Positions 6,429-37,146 of a stretch of DNA of 37,146 nucleotides are shown piece by piece; the stretch's first letter is position 1, and every line of letters starts with the position of its first letter. The notes below the pieces were generated by a model, which ran no database searches, was not told the origin of the DNA, and saw only the letters and a program-made list of their open reading frames with translations. The stretch lies in IMG/VR virus record IMGVR_UViG_2684622543_000013, one strand, 5' to 3'. The position numbers and the translations under genes were made by a program. The stretch comes from a virus (taxonomy: Duplodnaviria > Heunggongvirae > Uroviricota > Caudoviricetes).

Positions 6429-6483
6429 TGGGGCAGTATTGCCCCTGTGAGCCGTTGCCGATATTAAAGGCGTTTAAGAAGGT

Positions 6484-11963: not shown

Positions 11964-12221
11964 TTATGTTTTGTTGCCGTACTCGCTTTTGATTTGCTCT
12001 TCCGCCTGTTCCAGCCACATTTCCAGATCATCAGTATCGAGGGAATCAATCTCCCCCGGCTGAAACCTGAACCACCTCGCCAGCAGCCCCTGCGCCTGTT
12101 TCAGTGCTTTCGGTGCTCTTGCCCAGCCCAGTGACCTGCTGAAATCGTTTCTGCAGCTCCATGTAATCAGCAAGATCCATCTTATCGAGGTCTTCCGGCA
12201 GCATGCCGGTACTGCGGGCAA
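11964..12221 (-). CDS. Frameshift extension of the tail assembly chaperone (second frame, offset one nucleotide downstream of the chaperone frame)
   Basis: Open frame overlapping the 3' half of the chaperone gene and ending just upstream of the tape measure gene; conserved arrangement in tailed phages; slip site not identified. Confidence 0.5.
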   Translation of the reverse strand: MPAVPACCRKTSIRWILLITWSCRNDFSRSLGWARAPKALKQAQGLLARWFRFQPGEIDSLDTDDLEMWLEQAEEQIKSEYGNKT

Positions 12222-12381
12222 TCAGTGGTTCATCCCAGTCAGCGGGGTCTTTACTGGTTTTACGTGCCTGCTTCAGGTCTTTGACCGTCAGGCGTTTTAG
12301 TTCAACCAGCTCAACTCTGGTGCCAGCAGCTGTGGTGAAGGGGTAAGACAGCTTAAAAGTATCGGATTTGGTCTGTGACAT
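12046..12381 (-). CDS. Tail assembly chaperone (short form)
   Basis: 111-aa ORF between tail tube and tape measure with AGGAG ribosome-binding site upstream of ATG at 12381; overlapped by a second frame (11964-12221) typical of programmed-frameshift chaperone pairs. Confidence 0.7.
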   Translation of the reverse strand: MSQTKSDTFKLSYPFTTAAGTRVELVELKRLTVKDLKQARKTSKDPADWDEPLIARSTGMLPEDLDKMDLADYMELQKRFQQVTGLGKSTESTETGAGAAGEVVQVSAGGD

Positions 12382-12458
12382 GATCGTGCTCCTGTGTAAG
12401 TTCAGAGCAGTATGTCCGGAGGTGAGGCTGACAGATATTAAAGGGGATTAAGAAGAAA

Positions 12459-12472
12459 GGGGCCGGAGCCCC
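12459..12472 (-). terminator. Candidate intrinsic terminator or attenuator hairpin (GGGGC-cgga-GCCCC) followed by a T-rich run on the minus strand
   Basis: Perfect 5-bp GC stem; downstream minus-strand sequence TTTCTTCTTAAT; lies after the tail tube gene and the following small ORF. Confidence 0.5.
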
Positions 12473-12479
12473 TGTGATA

Positions 12480-17198: not shown

Positions 17199-18296
17199 TC
17201 ACAGGCAGCGTGAGACAGCAGCGTCATAGCTGATGCCTTCTTTTTTAGACAGTTCCAGCGCTTTCTGATGCAGCGCCAGACGTTCCGGATCAGCCTCAGC
17301 AAACTCCGCTGAAGTCGTTCCGGTATCCGTGCTCACACGGTCTTTGGTCGCGTGCTCACTGAAGCTCAGTACCGGTTCAGTGCTGTCCAGCAGCGTCTTA
17401 AACGCCGTGGCCAGCGGGGTACGGGTGTCGCCCTCGGCAAACTCAACCGGCTTATCGCCTGCAGAGACTGCGTCCAGGATGGCCACAACAACGGACTTCG
17501 CTTTGGGGGCCAGTCGGCCATCACCCACCAGTTTCTCGGCAAAGGCCACATTATCGGCATGTAATTTGTCCTGTTTCGCTTTGACGTCCTGCTCTGTACG
17601 TGCCGCCGCTTCAGCTTTCAGGCGTATGTTTTCAGCCTGAAGCGCTTTGATTTCTTCATCAGTCATGATGCTGTTCTCTTGTTGAGGGTTGGGATTGTGT
17701 TCACTGAATTCCGGCCCGGACTTCCCGGTGTCGCGGTAAGCCTCTTCGCGCAGGGAGTCCACTTGCCAGGAAGGAAGAACCTTGTCTGTCGCATCCAGCC
17801 CGAACTGAGCAATCAGGAAATCACGTAACCGGCCCCATAAAGACGCATTGGTGATATCCCCCCAGTCGGCAAACTCCACGACACCTTCTTCTTTCTCACC
17901 AAACGAGACCTGTTTCAGCCCCTTAACGGAAGGCGGCTGTGCCCCGAGAAAACCGACATGACGCAGGTAAAGTGTGCCGGGTTTCGGGTTGCTCGGTGAA
18001 TCCGGAAGATAAAATGAAGCAGAGACTTTTTTGAAGCGTCCGTTGCCCACCAGTTCGGCAAACTGCGGGTCGAGCTGATCAGGCTCAGCCAGCAGATCAC
18101 CGCCGTTAAGCGACAGGGATTTCACCCAGCCCCACGCCGGGTCTTCCGTTTTTGGGTGACCAATAACGAGCGGTGCTTCATGGACGGACGGGTCATAGGC
18201 TTTCACGCAGGCGGCAAGATCGCTTTGCGTGAACGGCAGTTTTGTGCCGTGCATATCGGTATGAGTACCGGCTTTGAAAATGTGAATGGCTGGCAT
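17199..18296 (-). CDS. Head maturation protease / scaffold protein (Mu I-like)
   Basis: 365-aa ORF; N-terminus MPAIHIFKAGTHTDMHGTKLPFTQSDL... typical of the Mu I family; acidic coiled-coil C-terminus. Confidence 0.8.
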   Translation of the reverse strand: MPAIHIFKAGTHTDMHGTKLPFTQSDLAACVKAYDPSVHEAPLVIGHPKTEDPAWGWVKSLSLNGGDLLAEPDQLDPQFAELVGNGRFKKVSASFYLPDSPSNPKPGTLYLRHVGFLGAQPPSVKGLKQVSFGEKEEGVVEFADWGDITNASLWGRLRDFLIAQFGLDATDKVLPSWQVDSLREEAYRDTGKSGPEFSEHNPNPQQENSIMTDEEIKALQAENIRLKAEAAARTEQDVKAKQDKLHADNVAFAEKLVGDGRLAPKAKSVVVAILDAVSAGDKPVEFAEGDTRTPLATAFKTLLDSTEPVLSFSEHATKDRVSTDTGTTSAEFAEADPERLALHQKALELSKKEGISYDAAVSRCL

Positions 18297-18507
18297 TTTG
18301 CTGTCCCGCGTTAAGTTGTCGGAGACAGTCTGCGGAAAAAGGGCAGTAAGCGCTTTTAATCTGGTTTAGAAAAAGTGAGGGGGCAGAGCGGAAAATGTCA
18401 CTGACGGATAAGCTATGGTATAAAGCGGCGGCTGTAAAGCCTTTATAAAGGTAATACAGCCCCGCAATGCCCGGCAATGATAAATCATCCGCCCTGATGG
18501 TCAGGAG

Positions 18508-18966
18508 TCAGCGACGGGCCGCAGATTCAAGATGACGCACAATCGTATCGAGGATGGGAATAACCACATCAGACTGCAGCTCACCGTCCCCCGTCAGCGG
18601 CAGGAACGGTCGGGCCGGAAGCTCAACGGACTCATTGCGCCCCGTTTTACCACCGAACTGATGAACCGGCCCGTAAACGACATTAGTGCCAACCGCTGCC
18701 TGCCTGTCGTCATGGTCTGTTGATACTGATCCCATCAGTCGTCCGGTGAGCTGCAGTGTCTGACCATCACGATCCTGTGCTGCAAGGGACGGCATCCAGC
18801 CCGGACGGCCCTCATCCAGAAAGTTAAACTGCGTTTCCGTCAGCAGGGTTCCGGCGATTTTACGCATCGCAGGCTCAAGGTCTGTGGCGGCTGAATCCAG
18901 CGCGCGCAGACTCTGGCGCAGGGACTCATCGTTAATGGTGATATTGACCAGATTATCAGAAGCCAT
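18508..18966 (-). CDS. Virion morphogenesis protein (Mu G-like)
   Basis: 152-aa ORF between the F-like and I-like genes. Confidence 0.65.
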   Translation of the reverse strand: MASDNLVNITINDESLRQSLRALDSAATDLEPAMRKIAGTLLTETQFNFLDEGRPGWMPSLAAQDRDGQTLQLTGRLMGSVSTDHDDRQAAVGTNVVYGPVHQFGGKTGRNESVELPARPFLPLTGDGELQSDVVIPILDTIVRHLESAARR

Positions 18967-24610: not shown

Positions 24611-25339
24611 TTAATCCACACAGCTGCCGCCTCCCCAGGTGAGATAACGGGGGGCCAGCTCCAGCAGAATACGCTGCGGGTAGTGACGGTTCTCGCGCCA
24701 GTTAGCCGCACTGCGTCCGGCATTGACGGTGGCGACATGACCAAACCAGCGGGTGCTGTCCAGTCCCTGCTGCAGAGCCAGACGTTTGTCACGCTGCACC
24801 CAGCCCAGACCACCGTTATAACCTGAGAGCGTCATTGCCATACGCTCACAGTTACCGGCTGCACTGACACGCTGCCACAGCCAGCGGTCATAACTGACCA
24901 GCGCCCGGATAGCCCAGGACGGATTAAACGGCTCGCGCTGATGAAGTCCGGGAACTGAGCGGCTTATCCAGTCGGCAGTGGCGGGCATGAACTGAGCCAT
25001 GCCCTGAGCACCAGCCGGAGATACAGCACCGGGCCGCCAGCCGCTTTCCTGATGTAACTGTGCGGCAAAATCAGCCACCGGCGCAGATACCCCCCATTCC
25101 AGACGGGCATTACGAATCAGCTCACTGCGGTACTTCAGTGCGGCCTGCGGGAGCTGTGCTGCTGCGGCCTGACTGAAAAAACCACCGCACCAGAGCAACC
25201 ACGCAATAAGCAGATTGTCCATAAGCTTCCACCAGAAACTGTATTTATCGTTGCGTGGTTCACCATGTTTAATGGCGGTTGCGCCCAGACAAAAAGCAAT
25301 CAGAAAGATGAATGTAATCTGAGGCCAGTTCATGGTCAC
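24611..25339 (-). CDS. Endolysin, lytic transglycosylase family, with N-terminal signal-anchor (SAR-type)
   Basis: Transglycosylase motif ...QLHQESGWRPGAVSPAGAQGMAQFMPATA...; hydrophobic N-terminus MTMNWPQITFIFLIAFCLGATAI. Confidence 0.8.
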   Translation of the reverse strand: MTMNWPQITFIFLIAFCLGATAIKHGEPRNDKYSFWWKLMDNLLIAWLLWCGGFFSQAAAAQLPQAALKYRSELIRNARLEWGVSAPVADFAAQLHQESGWRPGAVSPAGAQGMAQFMPATADWISRSVPGLHQREPFNPSWAIRALVSYDRWLWQRVSAAGNCERMAMTLSGYNGGLGWVQRDKRLALQQGLDSTRWFGHVATVNAGRSAANWRENRHYPQRILLELAPRYLTWGGGSCVD

Positions 25340-25686
25340 AGCCCCGTTGCCACAGACAGGCAGACTGCCGCAACAATCAGCGCACGGCGGATCAGGGCAG
25401 CGGAAAACACCAGGTGACGGCCTGTCTGAACGGGATAGCGTCCTTCCGACATCAGCTTTTTATCGTGCATCAGGTACTGACCCGGACGGGCTTTGGGGAA
25501 AAGTGACCGGTCAAGCCAGTAACCCAGCACAGCAGCCAGTGTGATAAGTGACAGTTTGTAGACCACCACCGGCAGTTGCTGCGGAGATACAAGACCGATA
25601 ATACCGAGCAGCAGCACGGCGGTCAGCAGCCATCCGATGAGGCGGGGTTTTTTAACGGGAGGGATGATTTTTTTCAGGTTTTTCAT
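25336..25686 (-). CDS. Holin-like membrane protein (first gene of the late operon)
   Basis: 116-aa ORF with 2-3 predicted TM helices, immediately upstream of the endolysin gene with 4-bp overlap. Confidence 0.65.
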   Translation of the reverse strand: MKNLKKIIPPVKKPRLIGWLLTAVLLLGIIGLVSPQQLPVVVYKLSLITLAAVLGYWLDRSLFPKARPGQYLMHDKKLMSEGRYPVQTGRHLVFSAALIRRALIVAAVCLSVATGL

Positions 25687-25800
25687 GAGGGTCTCCTTGT
25701 TATGTCGGAGACAGCATCACAAATACCGGGGGAAAGGGATTTTAAACAGCGTTAATAGTGAGACGGCAGGCGGTAACGGCATGATGCCCTGAAAGAACGA

Positions 25801-25828
25801 CCGGCCCGGTGCGCTAACACCGGACCGG
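25801..25828. promoter_or_regulatory. GC-rich imperfect dyad (CCGGCCCGGTG-cgctaa-CACCGGACCGG) in the late-operon leader; candidate activator-binding site or leader hairpin
   Basis: 11-bp arms with one mismatch, about 115 bp upstream of the holin start, in the 247-bp gap between the divergent late operon and methyltransferase gene. Confidence 0.35.
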
Positions 25829-25933
25829 CCGTCAACCCACAGACAAGACCTGTGAGCCGACCAGGGTTCAGTCAGTCTCGCGAGACCTGACCAGCCTGCC
25901 ATATTTTCACTGACAGTAAAAGGCTTACATATA

Positions 25934-26701
25934 ATGAAACAGCAATTTTTACCCATCGTCCCCTGGATTGGCGGAAAACGTCGGCTGGCCAAACATATTC
26001 TGCCGTTGTTTCCTGCTCATACCTGCTACGTGGAACCATTCTGCGGCGCAGCGGCACTTTACTTCCTCAAGAACCCCTGCAAGGTTGAGGTCATCAATGA
26101 TATCAATGGTGAATTAGTCAACCTCTACCGGGTGGTAAAGCATCATCTGGAAGAGTTCGTCCGTCAGTTCAAATGGGCACTGGTCAGCCGCCAGATTTAT
26201 AAGTGGCTGCAGGATACCCCGGAAGAAACACTCACTGACATTCAGCGGGCGGCAAGGTTCTACTATCTGCAGAAGCAGGCGTTTGGCGGTAAGGTGGCAG
26301 AACATACATTCGGAATATCCACCACCAGTGCACCGCGTTTTAACCTGTTGCGTATTGAAGAGGAACTGTCGATGGCGCACCTGCGCCTGTCCAGAACGCT
26401 GATAGAGCATCTGGACTGGCACCAGTGTATTGAGCGTTATGATCGCCAGCATACGCTGTTCTACTGCGACCCGCCGTACTGGGGAACGGAAGGTTATGGT
26501 GTGGACTTTCCGATAGGTAACTATATCCACATGGCGGAACTGGCCAGGAGTATCAAAGGGAAAATGATTATATCAGTGAACGATATCCCTGAAATGCGAC
26601 AGATATTTAACGGTCTGAATATTCACAGTGTAGAGATTAATTACAGTCTTGCAGCGAAGGGAACATCACGAAGTGAACTTATTGTAAGTAATTTAGAGTA
26701 G
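25934..26701 (+). CDS. DNA N6-adenine methyltransferase, Dam family
   Basis: Translation has the AdoMet motif PWIGGKRRLAKHILPLFP...YVEPFCGAAALYF and the catalytic DPPY motif (LFYCDPPYWGTEG). Confidence 0.85.
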   Translation: MKQQFLPIVPWIGGKRRLAKHILPLFPAHTCYVEPFCGAAALYFLKNPCKVEVINDINGELVNLYRVVKHHLEEFVRQFKWALVSRQIYKWLQDTPEETLTDIQRAARFYYLQKQAFGGKVAEHTFGISTTSAPRFNLLRIEEELSMAHLRLSRTLIEHLDWHQCIERYDRQHTLFYCDPPYWGTEGYGVDFPIGNYIHMAELARSIKGKMIISVNDIPEMRQIFNGLNIHSVEINYSLAAKGTSRSELIVSNLE

Positions 26702-26729
26702 ACTCGAAAGGGAACTTGTCGTCTTACAT

Positions 26730-26755
26730 AAAGATGCACCATAAGGTGCATCTTT
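26730..26755. terminator. Bidirectional terminator hairpin (AAAGATGCACC-ataa-GGTGCATCTTT) between the convergent methyltransferase and membrane-protein genes
   Basis: Perfect 11-bp inverted repeat with 4-nt loop, AT-rich flanks on both sides. Confidence 0.65.
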
Positions 26756-27173
26756 ATGATATTACTTTGATAATATTGAACAATCGTCTGCCTGTTTGTA
26801 ATAAACATAACATAGACGTGGCAACAAGCCCGATAAGAATAGCGGCTATAAACTCTTGATGTTTGCTTTGCAGCATTAGCCCAATTAAGCATGTCAACAC
26901 CAACACTAACAGAACCAAGCAAGTATCGAATGCATCACTCATCAGGCGCCTGTAATGTCCCGTTTTTTGCATATTTTTAAGTAACGGTTTATCAAGCAAC
27001 GATGCGAGTAGCGCAATTGCTGTAATAATAAAACCCAGTAATGTTGCAAAAACACTGGATAATGTTGTCATAAAGTTTGGGATTGCGGCTACTGGCATGT
27101 GGGGCAACTTGAACCAGTAGAGAAAACCTATTCCACATCCAATCAACAATCTAAGCAATAGGGCCGAGTTCAT
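26754..27173 (-). CDS. Small 4-helix integral membrane protein, second gene of the repressor-linked cassette (RexB-like architecture); start taken at ATG 27173
   Basis: About 139 aa with four hydrophobic segments (LLLRLLIGCGIGFLYWF; FMTTLSSVFATLLGFIITAIALLASLL; CLVLLVLVLTCLIGLML; FIAAILIGLVATSMLCLL); AT-rich; overlaps the upstream gene by 23 bp. Confidence 0.7.
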   Translation of the reverse strand: MNSALLLRLLIGCGIGFLYWFKLPHMPVAAIPNFMTTLSSVFATLLGFIITAIALLASLLDKPLLKNMQKTGHYRRLMSDAFDTCLVLLVLVLTCLIGLMLQSKHQEFIAAILIGLVATSMLCLLQTGRRLFNIIKVIS

Positions 27174-28044
27174 CTTCTCCAATATATGCATTGATACTCT
27201 CCCGGTTTTCAGCATACGCAGTATCGATTAGGCGGTACATGGTTTCGGCTGGAGGGAAACGAGCGTCAGTAACCACCGATTGATAGGACGAAATACGCTC
27301 GGCGATCAAATCTATTGGATGGACAACACCATCAGAATCAAACACATCAATTACCGCCTTTTTCGCCCCGAACTCGACCAATTCTTGCATAGCAAATTTT
27401 ATATTCTGTTTAAGCCTACCGTCACTATCGCCACGACGAGTATTAATCCCCATTATAATTTGCATTGTATCAGCCCCCGCATCACCAAGCAGTTGTAGTG
27501 TTTTTTGGCTGAAATCAGTATCAGGGTAAAGCTCAGGGTTACGGGGGCGAGGAATTGTTAACTGAATTTTTTTCATTTTGACATCTCCCCTCATTAGCCT
27601 AGTAATTGCATCTTTTTCCAGCAAAGGCGCAGGCTTAACCTTTGAACCAAAGATAGTTGAAAGAAATGCACTAAAACGGGTTATGCCACAAGCCACATGA
27701 TTGTAGTGCCAACCTACTATATTGATTTGAGGATAAAATACAAAAAAATTGCGTTCAATGATTCCTTCATCCTTAGCAAGTGGAATCGGGGTAGACTGCT
27801 TTCCTGGTGCACCTTTATCTGGGATATTCGAGTTGCGAAATTTCCTCAGCTCACCACTAAAAGAACCATCCACGCGTTTTTTCAACCCCCAAATTTCTCT
27901 AGTAAAACCCTCATGATTTGAAGATGAAGGTGTCAGCTTATTAACTACAGACTGAAAAGCATCTCCGAGATTTGCTAACTGTTTTGTGGACTTAAACGAT
28001 AACTGATAAAACTCAATACGATAATTTCTTACATCACCACTCAT
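27151..28044 (-). CDS. Hypothetical 297-aa soluble protein, first gene of the repressor-linked cassette (RexA-like position)
   Basis: Long ORF co-oriented with and 122 bp downstream of the repressor gene; distinctly AT-rich compared with the rest of the prophage; no motif recognised by eye. Confidence 0.7.
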   Translation of the reverse strand: MSGDVRNYRIEFYQLSFKSTKQLANLGDAFQSVVNKLTPSSSNHEGFTREIWGLKKRVDGSFSGELRKFRNSNIPDKGAPGKQSTPIPLAKDEGIIERNFFVFYPQINIVGWHYNHVACGITRFSAFLSTIFGSKVKPAPLLEKDAITRLMRGDVKMKKIQLTIPRPRNPELYPDTDFSQKTLQLLGDAGADTMQIIMGINTRRGDSDGRLKQNIKFAMQELVEFGAKKAVIDVFDSDGVVHPIDLIAERISSYQSVVTDARFPPAETMYRLIDTAYAENRESINAYIGEDELGPIA

Positions 28045-28166
28045 ACGATTAATCCTTAATATGGCAAGTTCAAATGGTTAGCGCGAACAACAAATCTTGG
28101 TGTTTAAACCAGCATGCATAACGAAGAGGTTTGATAGCCTCGTCGATTATTCCCATTAGGAACAGA

Positions 28167-28583
28167 TTAACCCACATTTTTTAGCCGCTCAATTGTTGCG
28201 GATAATTCTTTAAGTTGTTTTTCCATTTCAATTACACGCTGTTTTTCTTCAGCGCCTCGCATGAGATCTCGGCGAACCTCTGGGTCTAGCTGATTTAGGA
28301 GTTCAAGCATTTTAAGATCAGCTGGACTGAAGTTTTGCGTTGCAGGTTCAATCGTCAATACCTCGCTCCTATCCTCGCCTTTACCTGTAAGTAACCAGTC
28401 AAGAGAAATACCCTTTTCCTCTGCAATGTTTATGCAAATTGAATAAGGCACAGAGTCTCGCTTTCTCCAGCTAGCTAAAGTCTGTCTATTAACATTCAGC
28501 ATACGAGCCAGCTCACTGTCGTTATCAACATTAAACAGTGACATTAGTCGCAGAAGCACTGCATTAATGTCCTTTTTATTCAT
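28167..28583 (-). CDS. Prophage repressor (CI-like HTH DNA-binding protein)
   Basis: 138-aa ORF; N-terminal HTH ...LARMLNVNRQTLASWRKRDSVPYSICINIAEEKGISLDWLLTGKG; transcribed divergently from the ner-like gene. Confidence 0.8.
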   Translation of the reverse strand: MNKKDINAVLLRLMSLFNVDNDSELARMLNVNRQTLASWRKRDSVPYSICINIAEEKGISLDWLLTGKGEDRSEVLTIEPATQNFSPADLKMLELLNQLDPEVRRDLMRGAEEKQRVIEMEKQLKELSATIERLKNVG

Positions 28584-28666
28584 TTCAAATAAATCCCACT
28601 TGAGTTATTCATTTTAAATAAGTACACTTATTCATATTGAGTACATCATAACCTAACAGGAACACG
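28576..28666. promoter_or_regulatory. Divergent repressor/early-promoter switch region with three direct repeats of TTATTCAT (28576-28583, 28605-28612, 28628-28635)
   Basis: AT-rich 83-bp intergenic region between divergent repressor and Ner-like genes; repeated 8-mers spaced 29 and 23 bp. Confidence 0.55.
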
Positions 28667-28897
28667 GTGCATATGAACAAACAACAGGTTCGGGCACGAC
28701 TGATTGAACGGGGCAGCAGCCTACGCCAGTTCGCGCTTAACGCTGGCTATGAGCCACGTACTGTTACCCAGGCAGTAAGCCGCTGGGCTGGCCGGAATGA
28801 GCTTCCCCGTGGGCGTCTGACGTATCGCATTCTGCGAGATCTGTCCGTCGTGATCGGTAAAGAAGTTACACCCGGCATCCTTCAGGAGGTGTCATGA
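28667..28897 (+). CDS. ner: Ner-like DNA-binding regulator (Ner/Nlp family); start may be ATG at 28673 rather than GTG at 28667
   Basis: Translation ...VRARLIERGSSLRQFALNAGYEPRTVTQAVSRWAG... fits the Ner/Nlp HTH family; first gene of the early operon. Confidence 0.8.
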   Translation: MHMNKQQVRARLIERGSSLRQFALNAGYEPRTVTQAVSRWAGRNELPRGRLTYRILRDLSVVIGKEVTPGILQEVS

Positions 28898-29199
28898 GAA
28901 AAGTAAATATTTCCAGCTCAGGTTCCCGCATTTTGCGTGTTCTTAAAGCTCTTCGCGGTCACACACTTAATGGGATCTCAAATGGTGAGCTGGCATTAGC
29001 ACTTGAAGATTCTCCGGCCAATATCAACCGTGCGTTAAATACACTGATCGAAGAAGGGCTAGCAATGAAGCTGGATAACGGTCGTTTTGCACCGGGCATC
29101 CAGCTTTTGCAGATCGCTGTTGCGTATAGCAACGAGATGAGCCGGGCACAGGATCGCATAAACGAAATTAACCAACGGGTATTAGCTGGTAGTCGATAA
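28894..29199 (+). CDS. Winged-helix DNA-binding protein (putative early regulator)
   Basis: 101-aa ORF with HTH-like ...LNGISNGELALALEDSPANINRALNTLIEEGLAM... Confidence 0.55.
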   Translation: MRKVNISSSGSRILRVLKALRGHTLNGISNGELALALEDSPANINRALNTLIEEGLAMKLDNGRFAPGIQLLQIAVAYSNEMSRAQDRINEINQRVLAGSR

Positions 29200-29208
29200 G
29201 GAATAAAA

Positions 29209-30117
29209 ATGGGACGCGAAAAAATACAACCTGCTGAATTAGTAGAAAATTCACAGCTATCCGATGATATAAACGTCAATCTTAATGCCATGGCTGAGCA
29301 TCGCCTTGAAATCATGCAGCAGTTTGGTGAAGGTCTGCCTTACGAACGTGATCGTATTGTCCATGAAACGAAGTTTTACATGGCACAATCGGCAGAAGCA
29401 ATGCTGGAAGCAGGTAAACGACTGATTATTCTTAAAGAATGTGAACCTCATGGCGATTTCACTCAAATAATTACAGAACAACTTGGTCTTGCGGAAAGAA
29501 CCGCCAGATTGGTCATGCAGGCAGCTGTTAAATATTGCTCACCAGAGTTGGAGTCAAAACGGCAAGCGCTTGCCGTTTTGGGAAAAACAAAGTTGTTTGA
29601 ACTTATGACTGAAGATGATGGAGACCTAGTTGAATTAGCTGATGGCGGTACGATCGCCGGTATGAGCCTTGATGATATTGATCGCATGACAAGTCGTGAA
29701 CTGAAGGCCGCACTGCGCGAAGCACGTGAGACCAACGCAGCACAACAGCGCGTTCTCGCCGATAAAAACGAGAAGATTGACACGCTCTCCACAAAGCTGG
29801 AGAAGAAATCCCGGATACAACCACCAAAACCCGACGAAGAAGTGAAGAAGTTGCGGGCAGAAGTGACCGCATTATCCACTGAGGCGGAATCTGCCATCAC
29901 TGTCCGCCTGTTCAGCGCCTTCGAGATCCTGAGCGCCTATTGCGCAGAAAACCAGATTGATACGCCGAAAGACTTTATGGCGGGACTGGTCTGCGAACTG
30001 GAGAGCGCTGCCCGCAACCTGCGTTCTGCATTTGATCTGCCGGATGTGCCGACCGGCAACGTTGCCCCTTCCTGGCTGACAGACCCGATACCTGAGATTA
30101 ACGGGCGGGAGGCATAA
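29209..30117 (+). CDS. Hypothetical early protein upstream of the transposase
   Basis: 302-aa ORF in the early operon with AGGAA-type spacing; acidic, coiled-coil-rich C-terminal half. Confidence 0.55.
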   Translation: MGREKIQPAELVENSQLSDDINVNLNAMAEHRLEIMQQFGEGLPYERDRIVHETKFYMAQSAEAMLEAGKRLIILKECEPHGDFTQIITEQLGLAERTARLVMQAAVKYCSPELESKRQALAVLGKTKLFELMTEDDGDLVELADGGTIAGMSLDDIDRMTSRELKAALREARETNAAQQRVLADKNEKIDTLSTKLEKKSRIQPPKPDEEVKKLRAEVTALSTEAESAITVRLFSAFEILSAYCAENQIDTPKDFMAGLVCELESAARNLRSAFDLPDVPTGNVAPSWLTDPIPEINGREA

Positions 30118-30120
30118 GCG

Positions 30121-31890
30121 ATGAGTGCTGCCCTGACTGAACGACTGGTTTCTGTTGCCCGCGCGGCACGTGACGCGGGGCATGGTAAACGTGGTGCAAT
30201 ATACGACGCCGCCTGCACAGAACTGGGTATATCCCGTGCCACACTGCTGCGCAAGCTGAAGGAGGTATCAGTGACTGACAAACGCAAAAAACGCGCTGAT
30301 GCAGGACGCAGCTCACTGAGCCGCGATGAAGCTGCGCTGATATCCGCCACACTGCGCGAAGCTACCCGTAAAAATGGCAAGCGCCTGTATTCCATCGCGG
30401 ATGCGGTGGAAACTCTGAGGTCAAACGGCTTTATAACTGCAGGCAGAACGGACGAGGCCACAGGCGAGTTTTTCCCGCTGTCCGATGACACCATCAGCCG
30501 CGCACTGCGTAACTATGGCCTGCACCCGGAACAGCTTGATGCACCGGCCCCATCTTCCGAGGTGGCAAGTCTGCACCCTAATCACGTCTGGGAGATTGAT
30601 GCGTCGCTTTGTACGCTTTACTACCTGAGTAACGGTCACAAGGGGCTGCAGGTGATGGACAGCGCGAAGTTCTACAAGAATAAGCCTGCCAACCTTGCAC
30701 ACATCGCCAGTGACCGGGTATGGAGCTATGAGATAACCGATCATACCAGCGGCTGGATTTATGTTGAGTACGTGATGGGTGCGGAATCCGGTGAAAACCT
30801 CTGTTCTGTGCTTATCAATGCGATGCAGGAACGCGGCGGTGCAGATGTGCTGCACGGCGTACCTAAAATACTCTACCTTGACCCCGGTTCGGCGAACACC
30901 GCCGGCATGACGAAAAACATGTGCCGCTCGCTGGGTATCGATCTGATAGCGCACAAGCCGCATAACGCCCGCGCTACCGGTCAGGTTGAAAAAGCCCGTG
31001 ACATTATCGAACGCAAGCTGGAACCGGGTCTGAAGTTCCGTCCGGTTAACAGCCTGGAAGAGCTGAACTCACTGGCTGTGAAATGGCGCAGTCACTTTAA
31101 TGCCACAGCAATCCACAGCCGTCACGGTAAAACCCGCACCGATATCTGGCTGAAAATCACGGCTGAACAGTTGCAGAAAGCGCCATCTGCAGAGGTCTGC
31201 CGTGAACTGGCGGTGGCGGCACCGGAACTCCGCAAAGTCACACCAAAACTGCGTGTATCGTTCCGTGGCACAGAGTTTGATGTGTCGGCGGTACCGGGCG
31301 TTCTGGTCGGCGAAAAACTGATGATTACCCGTAACCCATGGCGCAGCGATGTGGCACAGGTGGTACTGACCGGCGGGGACGGTCACGAGACATTCTTTCT
31401 GGTCGAAGAGGTCAGAAAGAACGAGTTTGGCTTTGCCGAAAGCGCGGCGGTGTTTGGCAAAAGCTATAAACCCCTGCCGGAGACTACGGCACAGACTGCT
31501 GCAAAAGAAATTGAAGAGCTGGTCACCGGTACGGATAACGCTGCTGATGCAGCGGCAGCCCGTAAGGCAAAAACGCTGCCGTTCGGCGGACGACTGGATC
31601 CATACAAACATATCGACGACACCACGCTTCCCGCCTATATGCCTAAACGCGGTCAGGTTTCAGATGTGCGCGGCCCGCGTATTGAGCTACGCCCGCTGAC
31701 CCATGTGGAGGCTGCGAAAATTCTGCGTGAAAAGTTCAGCCTGAACGGCCATACCTGGACGCCGGAACATTATCGCCGGTTAACGGCGGATTACCCGGAT
31801 GGTGTGCCGGAAGCCACACTGGATGAAGTGATGGTCGCCCTGACCACCCCGGCCCGCAACAGCGTTATCAGCATTGTTAACGGCAACTGA
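30121..31890 (+). CDS. DDE transposase (Mu/Tn552/retroviral-integrase superfamily)
   Basis: 589-aa ORF; candidate catalytic triad D (HVWEIDAS), D (ILYLDPGSA) and E (ATGQVEKA) with about 35-residue D-E spacing; followed by an AAA+ ATPase gene. Confidence 0.85.
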   Translation: MSAALTERLVSVARAARDAGHGKRGAIYDAACTELGISRATLLRKLKEVSVTDKRKKRADAGRSSLSRDEAALISATLREATRKNGKRLYSIADAVETLRSNGFITAGRTDEATGEFFPLSDDTISRALRNYGLHPEQLDAPAPSSEVASLHPNHVWEIDASLCTLYYLSNGHKGLQVMDSAKFYKNKPANLAHIASDRVWSYEITDHTSGWIYVEYVMGAESGENLCSVLINAMQERGGADVLHGVPKILYLDPGSANTAGMTKNMCRSLGIDLIAHKPHNARATGQVEKARDIIERKLEPGLKFRPVNSLEELNSLAVKWRSHFNATAIHSRHGKTRTDIWLKITAEQLQKAPSAEVCRELAVAAPELRKVTPKLRVSFRGTEFDVSAVPGVLVGEKLMITRNPWRSDVAQVVLTGGDGHETFFLVEEVRKNEFGFAESAAVFGKSYKPLPETTAQTAAKEIEELVTGTDNAADAAAARKAKTLPFGGRLDPYKHIDDTTLPAYMPKRGQVSDVRGPRIELRPLTHVEAAKILREKFSLNGHTWTPEHYRRLTADYPDGVPEATLDEVMVALTTPARNSVISIVNGN

Positions 31891-33058
31891 GGAGGAACAC
31901 ATGCTGGTATTGAAACAACAACTTAAAGAAGCCCGTATCCCGCAGGCGGTGGTGGCAAGAGCAGTTGCCGTCTCCGAGGCAACGCTTGCCCAGATTGTGA
32001 ACCATAATGAGTGGCCCCGCACCAGTCCGGAAGATGTGCGCCAGCGTTTGGCGTCTTATCTGGAAAGTAAGGGGATTGATACAAAAAAGAGTTTTGATGT
32101 CGCACAGGGCGCTGCTGCGCCCGGCACAGCGGGTACAACCAACCTCCGTGAGGAAGAGAACATGTTACTTAAAAAACAGGTGTTATTTCCGGGAACCAAA
32201 AAAGCCTTTGGCCTTTTCCGTGACCCGTTCGCCGATGAAGCCATGCAGGGAGCGGACGATGTGTTTACCACACCGGATATCCGTTACGTGCGGGAGGCGC
32301 TGTACCAGACTGCCCGCCACGGTGGCTTTATGGCAGTTATCGGTGAGTCCGGTGCGGGTAAATCCACGCTGCGCCGCGATCTGACTGAACGCATCAACCG
32401 CGAGAACGCACCGGTGATTATTATCGAGCCATACATCATCGCCATGGAAGACAACGACGTGAAGGGCAAAACCCTGAAGGCGGCAGCTATCGCCGAAGCC
32501 ATCATCAGCACTATCGCGCCGCTGGAAAACATCAAACGCAGCCAGGATGCCCGTTTCCGCCAGTTACACCGAGTCCTGAAGGACAGCAGCCAGGCTGGCT
32601 TCAGCCACGTTCTGGTGATTGAAGAGGCCCACAGTCTGCCTATCCCGACACTGAAGCACCTCAAACGTTTTTTTGAGCTGGAGTCCGGCTTCAAAAAACT
32701 GCTGTCCATCGTACTGATTGGCCAGCCTGAACTGGCCACCAAACTGTCCGAACGCAATATGGAAGTCCGTGAAGTCGTGCAGCGCTGCGAAGTGGTTGAA
32801 CTGCTGCCGCTGGACAACAGCCTTGAAGAGTTTCTGGCGTTCAAACTGCAACGTGCCGGTAAGCAGCTGGCTGACGTCATGGACGCAGGTGCAGTTGAGG
32901 CCATCCGTGCCCGCCTGAGCAATCCGGGCAGCAACCGTAAAAGCATGGTCAGCCTGCTGTATCCGCTGGCTGTCAGTAACCTGGTGATAGCTGCCATGAA
33001 TCTGGCCGCTGAAATCGGGGTTCCGCAGGTCAACGCCGACGTTGTTAAAGGAGTTTAA
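31874..33058 (+). CDS. Transposition target-capture ATPase (AAA+, MuB/TniB-like)
   Basis: Walker A GESGAGKST, Walker B-like HVLVIEEAH; N-terminal HTH; overlaps the transposase gene end. Confidence 0.8.
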   Translation: MLTATEEEHMLVLKQQLKEARIPQAVVARAVAVSEATLAQIVNHNEWPRTSPEDVRQRLASYLESKGIDTKKSFDVAQGAAAPGTAGTTNLREEENMLLKKQVLFPGTKKAFGLFRDPFADEAMQGADDVFTTPDIRYVREALYQTARHGGFMAVIGESGAGKSTLRRDLTERINRENAPVIIIEPYIIAMEDNDVKGKTLKAAAIAEAIISTIAPLENIKRSQDARFRQLHRVLKDSSQAGFSHVLVIEEAHSLPIPTLKHLKRFFELESGFKKLLSIVLIGQPELATKLSERNMEVREVVQRCEVVELLPLDNSLEEFLAFKLQRAGKQLADVMDAGAVEAIRARLSNPGSNRKSMVSLLYPLAVSNLVIAAMNLAAEIGVPQVNADVVKGV

Positions 33059-33060
33059 CC

Positions 33061-33330
33061 ATGAAATCGATCAGCGATATCAACCGGCAGATGAGTAATG
33101 TCTGTTCCGCCATTGCGGTACTCAACACCATGAACATGATTGTACAGAGCGTCATGATTGCAGGCAGTAAACCGGTTATCCGTATCTCCCGCAACGGCCA
33201 CTGTGCCCGTCTGCTGGAACAGGGAAAAGCGGGGTATACCCATACAGGCCATAACGGCTCAGGACGCTTTCGTCAGGGCTTCTTTGAACTGCATGGCTGC
33301 CGTATTACCTGGTCAGAATCATTACATTAA
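33061..33330 (+). CDS. Hypothetical early protein
   Basis: 89-aa ORF tightly packed after the ATPase gene. Confidence 0.4.
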   Translation: MKSISDINRQMSNVCSAIAVLNTMNMIVQSVMIAGSKPVIRISRNGHCARLLEQGKAGYTHTGHNGSGRFRQGFFELHGCRITWSESLH

Positions 33331-33347
33331 CCATAAGGTGAACAACG

Positions 33348-33959
33348 ATGAACGAAGTAAATAAAGAAGACTACATGAAAGACCGCAAGGGGCGGCTGGT
33401 GCCGGTTGACCAAGTATCTGACTATGACCTTGCGATGGATTCTTTCGTTAAAGAACAGGTTGCCGCCGCGAAGGTCAAACGCGATGAACTCAGTGATTTC
33501 AAACGCCGGGCTTTTGACGAATGCTATGCCTGGCTTGACCTTGTGGCCGAGAAGTACGGCAGAACACGTGGCGGAGCCAAAGGCAACGTGACCTTCAGCA
33601 GCTTCGACGGCAGTCAGCAGATAACCATCCGTGTGCAGGAAACCCTGACTTTCGGGCCGGAACTGCAGATTGCCAAAGACCTGATTGACGAGTGCGTCAC
33701 CGAGTGGTCTGAAGGTGCGAACGCCAACCTGAGAGCCATCATCAGCGATGCTTTCCAGGTGGACAAGGAAGGCCAGCTTAACACCGGTCGTATTCTTTCC
33801 CTGCGGCGGGTCAAAATTCAGGACGACCGCTGGAACCGAGCAATGGAAGCCATATCAGAATCACTGCAGGTGGCGATGTCCAAAACCTATATTAATTTTC
33901 GCGAAAAAGATAAACACGGAAAGCTGATTAATATCCCGTTAGATATCGCTGCTGTTTAA
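33348..33959 (+). CDS. Hypothetical early protein (conserved Mu-like early-region protein, possibly DUF3164-type)
   Basis: 203-aa ORF with AGG-containing upstream region; assignment by position only. Confidence 0.5.
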   Translation: MNEVNKEDYMKDRKGRLVPVDQVSDYDLAMDSFVKEQVAAAKVKRDELSDFKRRAFDECYAWLDLVAEKYGRTRGGAKGNVTFSSFDGSQQITIRVQETLTFGPELQIAKDLIDECVTEWSEGANANLRAIISDAFQVDKEGQLNTGRILSLRRVKIQDDRWNRAMEAISESLQVAMSKTYINFREKDKHGKLINIPLDIAAV

Positions 33960-34039
33960 TTTTTAATTCCGTTTCTTTTTATTTCGGCGTCAGCGCCGCG
34001 GGTTTCTGCACGCCGAAAACTGTCAGGAGACCATCTGTT

Positions 34040-34225
34040 ATGTCTGTCAAATGCAACCATTGTAAGCAAAACATCACCACACTGAAGCCGTGTGAGGCCA
34101 ATATTATCATCACCGGAAAATACCATGTACCGGCGGTTCTCATCACGCTGGTTTGTCCTCATTGCAGTCAGCATTATTACGCGGAAGTCCCGGTTATGGA
34201 ATTTATACCTTGCGAGGAAAAATAA
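34040..34225 (+). CDS. Small zinc-ribbon protein (two CxxC pairs)
   Basis: 61 aa with C5-x2-C8 and C39-x2-C42 (CNHC ... CPHC); GGAG ribosome-binding site upstream. Confidence 0.55.
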   Translation: MSVKCNHCKQNITTLKPCEANIIITGKYHVPAVLITLVCPHCSQHYYAEVPVMEFIPCEEK

Positions 34226-34497
34226 TGATCACGCCTAAAGAAGCAGAAAAAAGAACCCGTGAAATTGTCGCGGAATATATTAGTGAATGTGGCTGTGAAA
34301 ATCCTGACCATATCCGGCAGGTATTAATCAAATTAATCAGCATGGCGGCTCACGCCATTGTGGCAACCAACGGACTGGAACAAGCCACGAATGTTCTTCA
34401 TTCAACCAGCGATTACCTGCAAAAGCTGCCGCCGCTGTACAGAACGGAAATGACCGAGGACGGTCAGATAAAAATCATGGGTGTACCCCGCCATTAA
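34225..34497 (+). CDS. Hypothetical early protein; start at ATG overlapping the preceding stop (TAATG)
   Basis: 90-aa ORF MITPKEAEKRTREIVAEYISECGCENPDHIRQ... Confidence 0.45.
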   Translation: MITPKEAEKRTREIVAEYISECGCENPDHIRQVLIKLISMAAHAIVATNGLEQATNVLHSTSDYLQKLPPLYRTEMTEDGQIKIMGVPRH

Positions 34498-34512
34498 TGT
34501 GGAGAGAATAAG

Positions 34513-35022
34513 ATGAAAGGCATGAAATTATATAACCGCTCGACTCTCTACAGCATGGCTCTGAAAACTTTTGGCCCGGAAGCTCAGGCTATGAAGCTGA
34601 TTGAGGAGGCTGCAGAACTGGCCGCTGCCGCAGCCCGTAATATGAACGGATTGGGCAATGAGGTTGATTTGGCCGGGGAACTGGCTGACGTTGAAATAAT
34701 GACTGAACAATTCCGTCTTAACGGACTGGGTAAACTGATTGACTTCAAAAAACAGGTAAAGCTGGAACGTCTGGCCAAACGTATCGGATGTTCATACCGT
34801 ACAGCAGATGATATTCATCCTACCGGCAGTTATGACGGGCTGGCAGCATTAATTAAAAAACTACCCCGCCGTGAACTGCTTGAAGACTGGTGTGGTGCAG
34901 TTCCAAACAGTGCATTTATCGGGGCGACAGATCAGGAGATTGCGGTAATGTCCGAATTTATCCTCGCCATACTTGATCTGCAGAATACCGGAATATTCGG
35001 GGGACCTTATGCAGGAAAATAA
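34513..35022 (+). CDS. MazG-like nucleoside triphosphate pyrophosphohydrolase domain protein (N-terminal domain) with uncharacterised C-terminal region
   Basis: Motifs LIEEAAELAAAA and GELADVEIM resemble the EExxE...ExxD metal-binding signature of all-alpha NTP pyrophosphatases. Confidence 0.5.
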   Translation: MKGMKLYNRSTLYSMALKTFGPEAQAMKLIEEAAELAAAAARNMNGLGNEVDLAGELADVEIMTEQFRLNGLGKLIDFKKQVKLERLAKRIGCSYRTADDIHPTGSYDGLAALIKKLPRRELLEDWCGAVPNSAFIGATDQEIAVMSEFILAILDLQNTGIFGGPYAGK

Positions 35023-35698
35023 TGAAAAGATACTGGATAAATTAAAAAAACTCCTGGCACTTTCCAAATCAGATAATCCCCATGAAGCAGCGGTTGCGTT
35101 ACAGCGGGCCCAGAAACTGATGAGTGCATATGGTATTACGCAACATGATATTGCGCTCAGTGATATAGATGAAAGCATCAGTAGCTACTGGGCGGCTGGC
35201 AGTGTTAATCCGCCGTGTTATATGCTGGGTCTGCTGGATATTATCCAGGCGGCATTTGGCGTTAAGTCTATTATCCATTCCGGCTTTAAACCCGGCGTTG
35301 GTTTTTACGGTAATAAAGACCGGGTTGAACTTGCCTCATATACATGGGAAGTCCTGGCAAGACAATTAATTGCAGCCCGTAAAAACTATATCCGTCAGCA
35401 GAATAAGCAGATCATGAATAAGACCAAGACCAGCCGTGGTGACAAATTTGCCGAAGGTTGGGTACTGGCTGTACGCAGCGAGGTTCAGTTATTCGCAATG
35501 ACCCGCGAAGAAAGAGAACTGGCAAGCCTCTGGCTTGAACAAAAATACCCTGACTCAGGAACAACTTCCGGACGTCAGGCCGGAAAATCCCGTGATGGGG
35601 ATGTCTCCCGCATTACCGGTTACAAAGAGGGGAAAAACGTCCTGTTGCATCAGCCTGTCAATGGCCAGGAACAGCAGAAGCTGGGGAGTGGCTTATGA
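35009..35698 (+). CDS. DUF2786-domain early protein; start taken at ATG 35009
   Basis: N-terminus MQENNEKILDKLKKLLALSKSDNPHEAAVALQRAQKLMSAYGIT matches the DUF2786 pattern. Confidence 0.55.
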   Translation: MQENNEKILDKLKKLLALSKSDNPHEAAVALQRAQKLMSAYGITQHDIALSDIDESISSYWAAGSVNPPCYMLGLLDIIQAAFGVKSIIHSGFKPGVGFYGNKDRVELASYTWEVLARQLIAARKNYIRQQNKQIMNKTKTSRGDKFAEGWVLAVRSEVQLFAMTREERELASLWLEQKYPDSGTTSGRQAGKSRDGDVSRITGYKEGKNVLLHQPVNGQEQQKLGSGL

Positions 35699-35910
35699 TG
35701 GCTGAATCTGTTGTATTTTACCTGTTCTGGTATGGTCTCGCGGGATGGTGCACTGCTGAGTTGCACCGCCATTCAGGGTTTTACTCACGTTGCAGCAGCT
35801 ACGGACGCTGGTTCTGTTGGGCCGTTACATTCATGTGCTGGCCTGCTGCTCTTCCTTTATATGTCGATTATATTGGCGACGCAGGAAAAAGGAACGGAGA
35901 TGATGAATAA
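35695..35910 (+). CDS. Small hydrophobic protein
   Basis: 71-aa ORF with two hydrophobic stretches; start overlaps the preceding stop. Confidence 0.4.
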   Translation: MMAESVVFYLFWYGLAGWCTAELHRHSGFYSRCSSYGRWFCWAVTFMCWPAALPLYVDYIGDAGKRNGDDE

Positions 35911-36328
35911 ACAGCGCCTTATTCAACTCATTCACATAGCCCGCAGTGACCTCCGGATGGATGAGGATACCTACCGGCAGATGCTGCAGGGCCTGACCGG
36001 TAAGGCCTCAACCAAAGGAATGGATGCCATACAGCTAAACCGCGTTCTGGAATCCATGAAAAAGAAAGGCTTTCGTATTAAGCCTGCCGGGAAAGGTAAG
36101 TCCGGTTTACCGCTGGATAACCATCCGCAGTCAAAGAAAATCCGGGCGCTGTGGCTTGAGATGTCTGCGGCTGGCATCGTGCGCGACAGTTCAGAGCAGG
36201 CGCTGGCGCTGTGGGTCAAACGGGAAACGGGTATCAGCGCGTTACGCTGGCTCAGCAGTGAGCAGGCTGGCAGCGTGATTGAGAAGCTGAAAAAGTGGCA
36301 GCGCAGAGCTGCGGGGAGGAAGCAATGA
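35900..36328 (+). CDS. GemA-like protein (Mu gp16 family, DUF1018); start taken at ATG 35900
   Basis: Translation MMNKQRLIQLIHIARSDLRMDEDTYRQMLQGLTGKAS...RALWLEMSAAGIVRDSSEQALALWVKRETGISALRWLSSEQAGSVIEKLKKW. Confidence 0.7.
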   Translation: MMNKQRLIQLIHIARSDLRMDEDTYRQMLQGLTGKASTKGMDAIQLNRVLESMKKKGFRIKPAGKGKSGLPLDNHPQSKKIRALWLEMSAAGIVRDSSEQALALWVKRETGISALRWLSSEQAGSVIEKLKKWQRRAAGRKQ

Positions 36329-36714
36329 GCGACCTGAATCAGTTTCGCAGTAAAGGGCCGGAACTGTTGGTGGAGCTGGCACAACATACCTCTGAGACCG
36401 TCCAGGAAATTATTGATATTGAACTGGGAATTGCCGACCAGATTGGTCAGGCCGTCGCAAACCGCATGATGCAGGTCTGGGGCGGGCAAAACGTCTATTT
36501 TCCGATGGGTATGGTATGGCGGGTCAGCCAGCGTGACAGAGAAATATTTAACGAATTCGACGGGCGTAACCATCACGAGCTGGCCCGTAAATTTGGTGTT
36601 TCGCTACAGTGGATTTACAGTGTGGTGAAGCGGGTCAGAAAAGAAGAATTGGATCGGATGCAGGGCAAACTGTTTGATGGTGAATCCGATGCAGACACGG
36701 GGAAAAAGGAGTAG
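36325..36714 (+). CDS. mor: Mor/C-family transcriptional activator; start taken at ATG 36325 with GGGGAGGA ribosome-binding site
   Basis: Translation ...GGQNVYFPMG...RDREIFNEFDGRNHHELARKFGVSLQWIYSVVKRVRKEE matches the Mor/C family (C-terminal HTH). Confidence 0.8.
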   Translation: MSDLNQFRSKGPELLVELAQHTSETVQEIIDIELGIADQIGQAVANRMMQVWGGQNVYFPMGMVWRVSQRDREIFNEFDGRNHHELARKFGVSLQWIYSVVKRVRKEELDRMQGKLFDGESDADTGKKE

Positions 36715-36826: not shown

Positions 36827-36875
36827 TCCCATAATTATCTCACTTATCCCCTGTCATTTATCTCAAGTCTAATCA
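36827..36875. repeat. Right terminal inverted repeat of the transposable phage (motif copies AATTATCTC 36833-36841 and ATTTATCTC 36856-36864)
   Basis: Reverse complement TGATTAGACTTGAGATAAATGACAGGGGATAAGTGAGATAATTATGG aligns with the left end 842-890. Confidence 0.7.
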
Positions 36876-36881
36876 GCTCGC
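36876..36881. repeat. Right copy of the 6-bp target-site duplication GCTCGC
   Basis: Identical to 836-841; both copies are IS2 sequence. Confidence 0.75.
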
Positions 36882-36957
36882 CACGGGAATATCTGCGGCA
36901 GCGGGCTTGTAATGGGTTAAGTGATAACAGATGTCTGGAAATATAGGGGCAAATCCA
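36876..36957 (+). mobile_element. 3' terminal segment of IS2 including its right inverted repeat (ends ...GGGGCAAATCCA at 36957)
   Basis: Sequence GCTCGCCACGGGAATATCTGCGGCAGCGGGCTTGTAATGGGTTAAGTGATAACAGATGTCTGGAAATATAGGGGCAAATCCA recognised as the IS2 right end; continues the reading frame broken at 841. Confidence 0.85.
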
Positions 36958-37146
36958 CTTACGCTTATCTTCTCTTATTTTGAAATACAGATTCGTCAGA
37001 TAAGTCAGAAGCCCCAGAAGCAGACTTCCCAGCACACCAATCGCAGCCCACTGTGATGGACTGACCTGATCCAACCACTGCAAAAACCAGTAGCCGGCAC
37101 TGCCGGCGGAGGTGCCGTAGGCAATGCCTGTTGATATTTTTTCCAT
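36958..37146 (-). pseudogene. S21-type pinholin gene of a different (lambdoid-type) prophage; the last few codons are displaced by the IS2 insertion, giving a reading frame that runs into the IS2 inverted repeat
   Basis: Translation [63 protein letters not shown] matches the phage 21 pinholin family; the ORF continues through IS2 sequence to 36844. Confidence 0.75.

Follow-up and report, generated by a model that had tools for sequence, protein, structure and literature searches.

The viral sequence record IMGVR_UViG_2684622543_000013 (37,146 nucleotides, Caudoviricetes), which in its entirety we call the window, carries a complete BcepMu-like transposable prophage of 36,034 bp with TG...CA termini (842–36875). 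Its late genes run leftwards and its early operon rightwards, and the early operon ends in the only gene of the window that belongs to the Mor/C family of activators. Four late-promoter-like sites precede four of the late genes, and we propose, at a probability of roughly three in four, a two-step lytic programme in which this sole Mor would directly activate the four late promoters, with no middle operon and no C. A preliminary description of this DNA had raised direct activation of the late promoters by the single Mor-like protein as one option, and the comparative evidence given below favours it.

The four sites, P1 to P4, align without gaps as YTAA-N6-TTAA-N23-nAnnCT, that is, as an imperfect 16-bp dyad (ideal form TTTAAAGCGCTTTAAA), a spacer of variable sequence fixed at 22 bp and a −10-like hexamer nAnnCT, with no −35. 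The window has four occurrences of this pattern, where 0.02 are expected, all on the late (minus) strand and all between genes. P1 lies upstream of the holin gene, with its dyad ATTAACGCTGTTTAAA at 25741–25756 (weight-matrix score 53.7 bits) and the hexamer GATGCT at 25713–25718, of which A2 and T6 are kept across the variants found in relatives; its predicted start (+1) is at about 25705–25706. P2, upstream of the protease/scaffold gene, comprises the dyad TCTAAACCAGATTAAA (18355–18370, 40.1 bits) and the hexamer CAGACT (18327–18332), with a start predicted at about 18320 and with A16, A18, C19 and T20 invariant in 27 distinct leaders. The corresponding elements of P3, upstream of the tail chaperone gene, are CTTAATCCCCTTTAAT (12437–12452, 52.8 bits) and CATACT (12409–12414; predicted start about 12402), and those of P4, upstream of the baseplate gene gpW, are CTTAAACGCCTTTAAT (6463–6478, 39.3 bits) and AATACT (6435–6440; predicted start about 6428).

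These sites were reached through a TTAAAA that the gaps before the holin and protease genes share 25 nt before an identical 12-mer, CTGTCTCCGACA, and through a repeat search, which returned a 22-mer common to two further gaps, at 12.4 and 6.45 kb. The 12-mer itself was rejected as an activator site or as an Ogr-type TGT...ACA site of the kind known from phage P2, as it lies downstream of the hexamer and is absent from P3 and P4; it is explained by the end of the hexamer together with a hairpin arm. TAATAT, which is part of the 22-mer, was dropped as a −10 once the four sites had been aligned without gaps with a common hexamer 23 bp further on. Of the regions named in the preliminary description, the gap of about 210 bp upstream of the protease/scaffold gene (18297–18507) is real and holds P2, a conserved site of the activator-dependent type, and the interval of 25.69–25.93 kb proposed for reporter fusions holds the first predicted late promoter (25713–25756). 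The further sites at 12.4 and 6.45 kb had escaped notice. The gap between G and the protease gene also contains a separate element, CTTTATAAAGGCTTTAC (18434–18450, minus strand), about 65 bp upstream of the P2 dyad and including a 10-bp palindrome; its core TTTATAAAG with TTTAC is invariant in 12 diverse aligned relatives, among them BcepMu, and occurs once per genome in 58 loci.

For the comparison with relatives, 80 loci were fetched via the large terminase and 80 via gpW. The composite pattern with its exact spacing was found upstream of the holin gene in 54 of 64 relatives, of the protease gene in 66 of 67, of the chaperone gene in 61 of 63 and of gpW in 70 of 78 further relatives, the other eight gpW regions having one extra base. 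Relatives keep the half-sites and the hexamer, and the spacer varies freely in sequence but, apart from those eight regions, not in length. With the window left out, 79 distinct sites from relatives gave a weight matrix that scored the four sites at 39–54 bits, against −6 for the next best position in the window and a shuffle maximum of 8.2. Furthermore, the distance from dyad to hexamer (22 bp from the 16-bp dyad, or 23 bp from the second TTAA) is constant over the four promoters and over three phage lineages.

The −35 positions, as read from the letters, match TTGACA at about one of six positions, and a sigma-70 promoter scan whose range took in P1 and P2, but not P3 and P4, lists neither of the former. 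P1 to P4 share with promoters of the Mu C type a recognisable −10 and the absence of a −35 hexamer, and the dyad is centred at −42.5 to −43.5 if transcription starts 7–8 nt past the hexamer, as predicted. In the late promoters of Mu a −10 is present and a −35 absent, and C binds a 16-bp imperfect dyad centred at −43.5 (PMC2582627); Mor and C each bind dyads just upstream of a poor −35 (bioRxiv 10.1101/2025.05.02.651988). Assuming the predicted starts, the geometry of the sites in the window would equal that of the C promoters of Mu.

Each predicted −10 or start is overlapped by a hairpin on the minus strand (25684–25722, 18294–18336, 12379–12414 and 6426–6452). At P1 to P3 the final bases of the hexamer open a stem that pairs with the ribosome-binding region, and at P4 the stem brackets the hexamer and ends one base before the gpW ATG. 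Over 27 distinct sequences the P2 stem reaches 94% pairing, against 33–47% in slid controls, and four of its pairs show compensatory changes; no compensatory changes were seen in relatives for the stem of the holin leader, covariation being found only for the protease leader, and the hairpin energies of P1 to P3 are weak when the window is taken alone (z −0.6 to −1.4). The same arrangement, with different sequences, recurs in BcepMu and in Pasteurella phage AFS-2018a (MH238466), in which two of the hairpins are followed by U-runs. The gpW ATG lies exactly 6 nt past the P4 hexamer in the window, in at least 70 relatives and in BcepMu (7 nt in AFS-2018a), and from this distance a leaderless gpW mRNA is predicted; leaderless mRNAs would arise likewise for the proteases of BcepMu and of Pseudomonas phage H71, since in these two genes, as in gpW, the A of the ATG coincides with the predicted start or is one base away from it.

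The Mor/C-family gene occupies 36325–36714 on the plus strand and encodes 129 amino acids from a likely ATG at 36325, the same length as in Klebsiella phage KP12 and Escherichia phage PhiKM. Its open reading frame (36295–36714) matches Pfam PF08765 over profile positions 1–107 of 107, with 146.1 bits (cut-off 24.9) and E 4.5e-43, and in the alignment with Mu Mor and Mu C residues G54, Y58, P60, R70, D71, F78, G80 and N82 are invariant. The protein has the conserved linker GG..Y.P, a C-terminal helix-turn-helix and, by its residue composition, an acidic N-terminal and a basic C-terminal half; linker, helix-turn-helix and this division of charge are the features by which the Mor/C family has been described (PMC2582627). 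Because the right end of the prophage is the CA at 36874–36875, Mor sits 161 bp from it, and there is nothing after Mor but these 161 bp in which a Mu-type middle operon carrying a late activator could lie.

Mu Mor, Mu C and BcepMu gp01 were combined with three enterobacterial homologues into a profile, which was run with hmmsearch, together with phmmer, against all 834 stop-to-stop open reading frames of at least 25 amino acids in the six frames of the window. No second Mor/C paralogue was found there, as the preliminary description had stated: only the frame 36283–36711 scored (E 6e-67), and the next best candidate had E 0.6. The window thus has one of the two paralogues on which a three-step cascade of the Mu type depends. 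As a control, the same profile gave two matches in Mu, and it gave one each in KP12, PhiKM and BcepMu; in 1.49 Mb of related loci it returned no extra paralogue at E up to 1.

The sites were connected to Mor by comparison with phages that share one, the other or both. BcepMu has an identical 19-mer, TAAAGCCGATTAAAAGACC, before both its holin and its protease gene, and degenerate versions with the same spacing before gp41 and gp49, which places four predicted late promoters at the same positions as in the window. AFS-2018a, the Mor of which is 47% identical and has the same recognition helix, has its lysis, protease, chaperone and gpW genes preceded by near-perfect palindromes (TTTAAAGCGCTTTAAA) with unchanged spacing. 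Its genome is collinear and Mu-like, its transposase is of the Mu type and two of its promoter hairpins are full intrinsic terminators with a U-run. Among its early genes AFS-2018a shares Mor, GemA, DUF2786 and part of the repressor helix-turn-helix with the window, and no homologue was detectable in it of the winged helix-turn-helix (wHTH), gp16-like, DUF3102 or 61-residue zinc-ribbon-like proteins. H71 does have the wHTH protein, and its more diverged Mor (42% identical) goes with a different shared motif, TTTTCGCnnCTTCCAAAAgAC, which is unlike the TTAA dyad and stands before the holin, protease and tape-measure genes (11745, 20143 and 25651); this suggests a parallel single-Mor late regulon in B3-like phages. 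The three phages that have the TTAA dyad share the recognition helix S(L/M)QWIY, where H71 has TPSSIY, Mu Mor TFNTVY and Mu C SQPQIY. As motif and recognition helix change together, we infer that the sites belong to Mor.

In the two-step programme that we propose, loss of the repressor would allow transcription of the rightward early operon, the last gene of which, about 8 kb from the operon start, encodes the only Mor/C-family activator. Mor would bind the 16-bp dyad centred about 43 bp upstream of each of the four late starts and would recruit sigma-70 RNA polymerase to promoters that have an nAnnCT −10 but lack a −35. Four units would then begin, at the holin (P1), the protease/scaffold (P2), the tail chaperone and tape measure (P3) and gpW (P4).

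Several points weigh against this programme. Mor binding to the sites, the start points and the dependence on an activator are all predicted from sequence. The search pattern was derived from the four sites themselves, so that the count of four occurrences is not independent evidence, and the training sites of the weight matrix are homologous by descent to those of the window, so that the real support lies in the similarity among the four sites and in their presence in distant phages. The second half-site, TAAAAT or TAATAT, itself resembles a −10, and the conserved hairpins overlap the predicted starts, which would be easier to explain if transcription began further upstream. In addition, across the three phages compared, GemA, DUF2786 and part of the repressor helix-turn-helix accompany the motif as faithfully as Mor.

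Two of these points would be accommodated if the AT-rich block were itself a core promoter with TAAAAT or TAATAT as its −10. Transcription would then start about 35 nt further upstream, the transcript would carry the whole hairpin, and the timing of late expression would be controlled at a stage after initiation, through translation or RNA structure, instead of by an activator at −43. The two hexamers match TATAAT at five of six positions in P1, P3 and P4, and the conserved hairpins that cover the ribosome-binding sites, with their compensatory changes at P2, would lie inside such a transcript. Nevertheless, we consider this unlikely, since P2, both BcepMu 19-mers and many relatives read TAAAAG or TAACAG and so lack the critical last T, and since neither a −35 nor an extended −10 accompanies the block. 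The fixed distance between dyad and hexamer and the retention of A2 and T6 would be left unexplained, and an unregulated promoter before the holin gene should kill a lysogen.

It is also quite improbable that another early protein (the wHTH protein encoded at 28894–29199, the gp16/Ner-like protein or an uncharacterised product) is the late activator and that Mor has a different target. Several small DNA-binding proteins are indeed encoded in the early operon, and a site centred near −43 would suit many activator classes besides Mor/C, the tie between Mor and the motif being a predicted one. However, AFS-2018a has the motif at all four positions without a detectable counterpart of the wHTH, gp16-like, DUF3102 or zinc-ribbon-like proteins, H71 has the wHTH protein and not the TTAA motif, the motif following the recognition helix of Mor, and, by the weight-matrix scan, the window has no additional Mor-type site at which Mor could have a target of its own. 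Least probable is a second, highly diverged C-like activator that the sequence search missed, acting in a three-step Mu-like cascade: small helix-turn-helix proteins diverge fast and the early reading frames 33061–33330, 34153–34497 and 35695–35910 have no family assignment, but the profile that recovers Mu Mor and Mu C finds nothing else below E 0.6 in the window and none at E up to 1 in the 1.49 Mb, all four late sites are of one type, and the stretch from Mor to the prophage end has no middle-type promoter or operon.

If the predicted starts are right, the promoter hairpins form only in transcripts that read through from upstream; if the starts are wrong, the hairpins favour the core promoter in the AT-rich block. 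We tentatively suggest, as possible rather than probable, a built-in rule by which the promoter-overlapping hairpins restrict expression of the holin, the protease and the tail units to transcripts initiated by the activator. Read-through transcripts would fold the hairpin and be blocked in translation, or be terminated in AFS-2018a, where a U-run follows, and transcripts begun at the promoter, which lack the 5' arm, would be translated. Fold-back inhibition in IS10 resembles such a hairpin rule, which here would span a phage late regulon. Together with the predicted leaderless gpW message, the hairpins give a limited clue to the way in which late units are shielded from read-through.

Two further hairpins, both on the minus strand, lie upstream of promoters. 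The GC-rich dyad at 25801–25828, which the preliminary description had listed as a candidate activator-dependent promoter region, is real and folds as RNA into a strong hairpin (25796–25833, 17-bp stem, −38.7 kcal/mol, z −6.1) followed by UCGUUCUUUC. As an activator site it was rejected, because it lies about 90–127 bp upstream of the predicted P1 start, is replaced by unrelated sequence in many relatives and has a terminator-like form with a T-rich tail; the most fitting reading is that of a terminator-like element that insulates P1 from leftward read-through. Directly upstream of P3, the hairpin AGGGGCTCCGGCCCCT with a T-run (12458–12473, z −3.5) is likewise terminator-like, and BcepMu has an equivalent before its own P3.

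The divergent layout with a single Mor/C gene is an already published hallmark of BcepMu-like phages and is common also to B3-like phages. The preliminary description had correctly placed the late operon leftward from 25.7 kb, the early operon rightward from 28.7 kb and the Mor/C gene at the end of the latter, and had flagged this architecture as a departure; it is in fact the published organisation of BcepMu and its genus Bcepmuvirus (Summer et al. 2004, as summarised in PMC2771037; record NC_005882). In BcepMu, genes 1–13 (regulators and transposase) lie on one strand and genes 17–52 on the other with the lysogeny switch at their interface, and the late cluster has its lysis cassette next to that switch and a tail like that of phage P2 (PMC2771037). 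In the BcepMu record gp01 (Mor/C) and gp02 (GemA) lie outermost in the early cluster, and the protease gene gp32 is preceded by a gap of about 200 bp. All of this is found in the window: divergent clusters with lysogeny control between them, Mor/C and GemA outermost, the lysis cassette first in the late block, the gap of about 200 bp, a phage P2-like tail, TG...CA ends with a short target duplication and, instead of Mu A, a Tn552/IS1604-type rve transposase together with an ExeA-like B protein. Identity to the BcepMu proteins is 68% for the transposase, 58% for B and 55% for Mor (gp01). The window phage differs from BcepMu in being enterobacterial and of about 55% GC, the BcepMu sequence being visibly GC-rich, and in having a Gin-type invertase with an invertible fibre segment, dam and different cargo between the clusters; BcepMu reportedly lacks a tail-fibre inversion system (PMC2771037).

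Nor is a single Mor/C gene unusual, being the norm outside Mu and its closest relatives. With the window Mor as query, tblastn against 50,697 phage records matched 98 places in 84 records. Two places were matched in ten of the 60 records listed, all of them Mu, D108, SfMu or Yersinia Mu-like phages, and in four more among the other 24, and the listed Bcepmuvirus, B3-like, Vibrio, Shewanella, Pasteurella and other records had one each. This shows that the Mor-then-C cascade of Mu is the exception among transposable phages. The preliminary description had also pointed to the position of Mor at the distal end of the early operon; mor is the last gene of the Mu early operon too, and this fits the Mu gene order, in which mor directly follows gemA among the early genes.

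In Mu, Mor activates Pm, from which C is made, and C activates Plys, PI, PP and Pmom. The four late promoters of Mu combine a −10 with an imperfect 16-bp dyad near −43.5 and lack a −35; the lysis genes are preceded by one of them and the protease gene I by another (PMC2582627; PMC4461284). In these respects, as in the activator family and in the gemA–mor order, the window with its predicted promoters resembles Mu. It differs in having only one family member, and hence no middle operon and no C, in the inversion of the early block relative to the late block, in the absence of mom, in a transposase that is not Mu A and in the dyad sequence, which is of the TTAA-N6-TTAA type. The B3-like Pseudomonas siphoviruses H71, JBD25 and B3 share the divergent layout, their single Mor standing at the genome extreme on the minus strand (125–493 in H71 and 136–333 in B3) and their late genes on the opposite strand, and differ in their siphovirus tails, in the recognition helix of Mor and in the motif TTTTCGCnnCTTCCAAAAgAC. 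As a discovery the layout and the single Mor/C gene therefore carry little weight, having already been published for BcepMu-like phages; what is added, for a group of enterobacterial prophages that is widespread, is a predicted late-regulon map that can be put to the test, with four promoter coordinates, a consensus operator and a likely activator.

The late block (2488–25686, minus strand; lysis, head and tail genes) is collinear with the annotation of KP12, PhiKM and BcepMu. Its first gene is the holin gene (25336–25686; Pfam Holin_2-3), followed by those for SLT lysin, terminase, portal, G (18508–18966), protease/scaffold (17199–18296), capsid, sheath, tube, tail assembly chaperone (12046–12381), tape measure, baseplate, including gpW (6081–6428), and fibres. 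Matches to Phage_tube FII, GPW_gp25, Phage_base_V and TAC_7 mark the phage P2-like tail module. The Gin-type serine invertase is encoded at 935–1501 (minus strand), and 22-nt inverted repeats at 1569–1590 and 3790–3811 flank alternative tail-fibre ends.

The early operon (28667–36714, plus strand) is syntenic with BcepMu gp16 to gp01. It opens with a BcepMu gp16-family/Ner-like protein (28667–28897) and the small wHTH protein (28894–29199), followed by a DUF3102 gene, the rve transposase (30121–31890; 67.6% identical to BcepMu gp09; Pfam rve 32.0 bits, just below the curated cut-off of 32.6 bits, E 1.5e-07) and the AAA+ B protein (31874–33058; Pfam AAA_22; 58.4% identical to BcepMu gp08). DUF3164, DUF2786, GemA and Mor then follow in that order, the GemA homologue (35900–36328; Pfam PF06252, E 1.9e-39) standing directly 5' of Mor, as in gemA–mor of Mu and gp02–gp01 of BcepMu. 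The operon also contains a reading frame of 61 amino acids (34040–34225, plus strand) with two CxxC pairs, which resembles a zinc ribbon; it was rejected as a Com- or Ogr-like regulator, having no Pfam or PADLOC match, only a sub-threshold NCBIfam CXXC match and no homologue in BcepMu, H71 or AFS-2018a.

Between the two blocks lie a D12-class DNA adenine methyltransferase gene, dam (25934–26701, plus strand; Pfam PF02086, E 7e-29; PADLOC MTase_II, E 2e-114), and a CI-type repressor gene divergent from the early operon (28167–28583, minus strand; Pfam Phage_CI_repr, E 8e-19). The weight-matrix scan found no Mor-type site before dam or in the early region. Directly 3' of dam there is a perfect hairpin with a 14-bp stem (26727–26758), likely to be a bidirectional terminator, since it faces dam on one side and the leftward cargo and repressor genes on the other. 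The cargo consists of two genes of low GC content (about 42–46%; 26754–28044, minus strand; 153 and 297 amino acids), which had only sub-threshold, uninformative matches in Pfam, NCBIfam and PADLOC; KP12 and PhiKM have different genes there, and the region resembles a variable cargo slot, possibly a defence or moron locus.

As a whole, the element is nothing out of the ordinary within the BcepMu group, a known group of transposable prophages. Its nearest annotated phages are KP12 and PhiKM, the latter classed in Bcepmuvirus, and E. coli genomes carry related prophages at about 86% identity. An Rfam scan of the window gave 0 matches. The two prophage ends are alike as inverted repeats, from the left TG at 842–843 to the right CA at 36874–36875, and are bordered by a 6-bp target duplication, GCTCGC, at 836–841 and 36876–36881. 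The prophage splits orfB of IS2, positions 1–841 of the window encoding residues 1–281 of IS2 TnpB and 36876–36957 being the remainder of IS2, and the insertion is nested, as the IS2 itself lies inside a phage-21-type class II holin gene of a lambdoid prophage (flanks 1–841 and 36876–37146).

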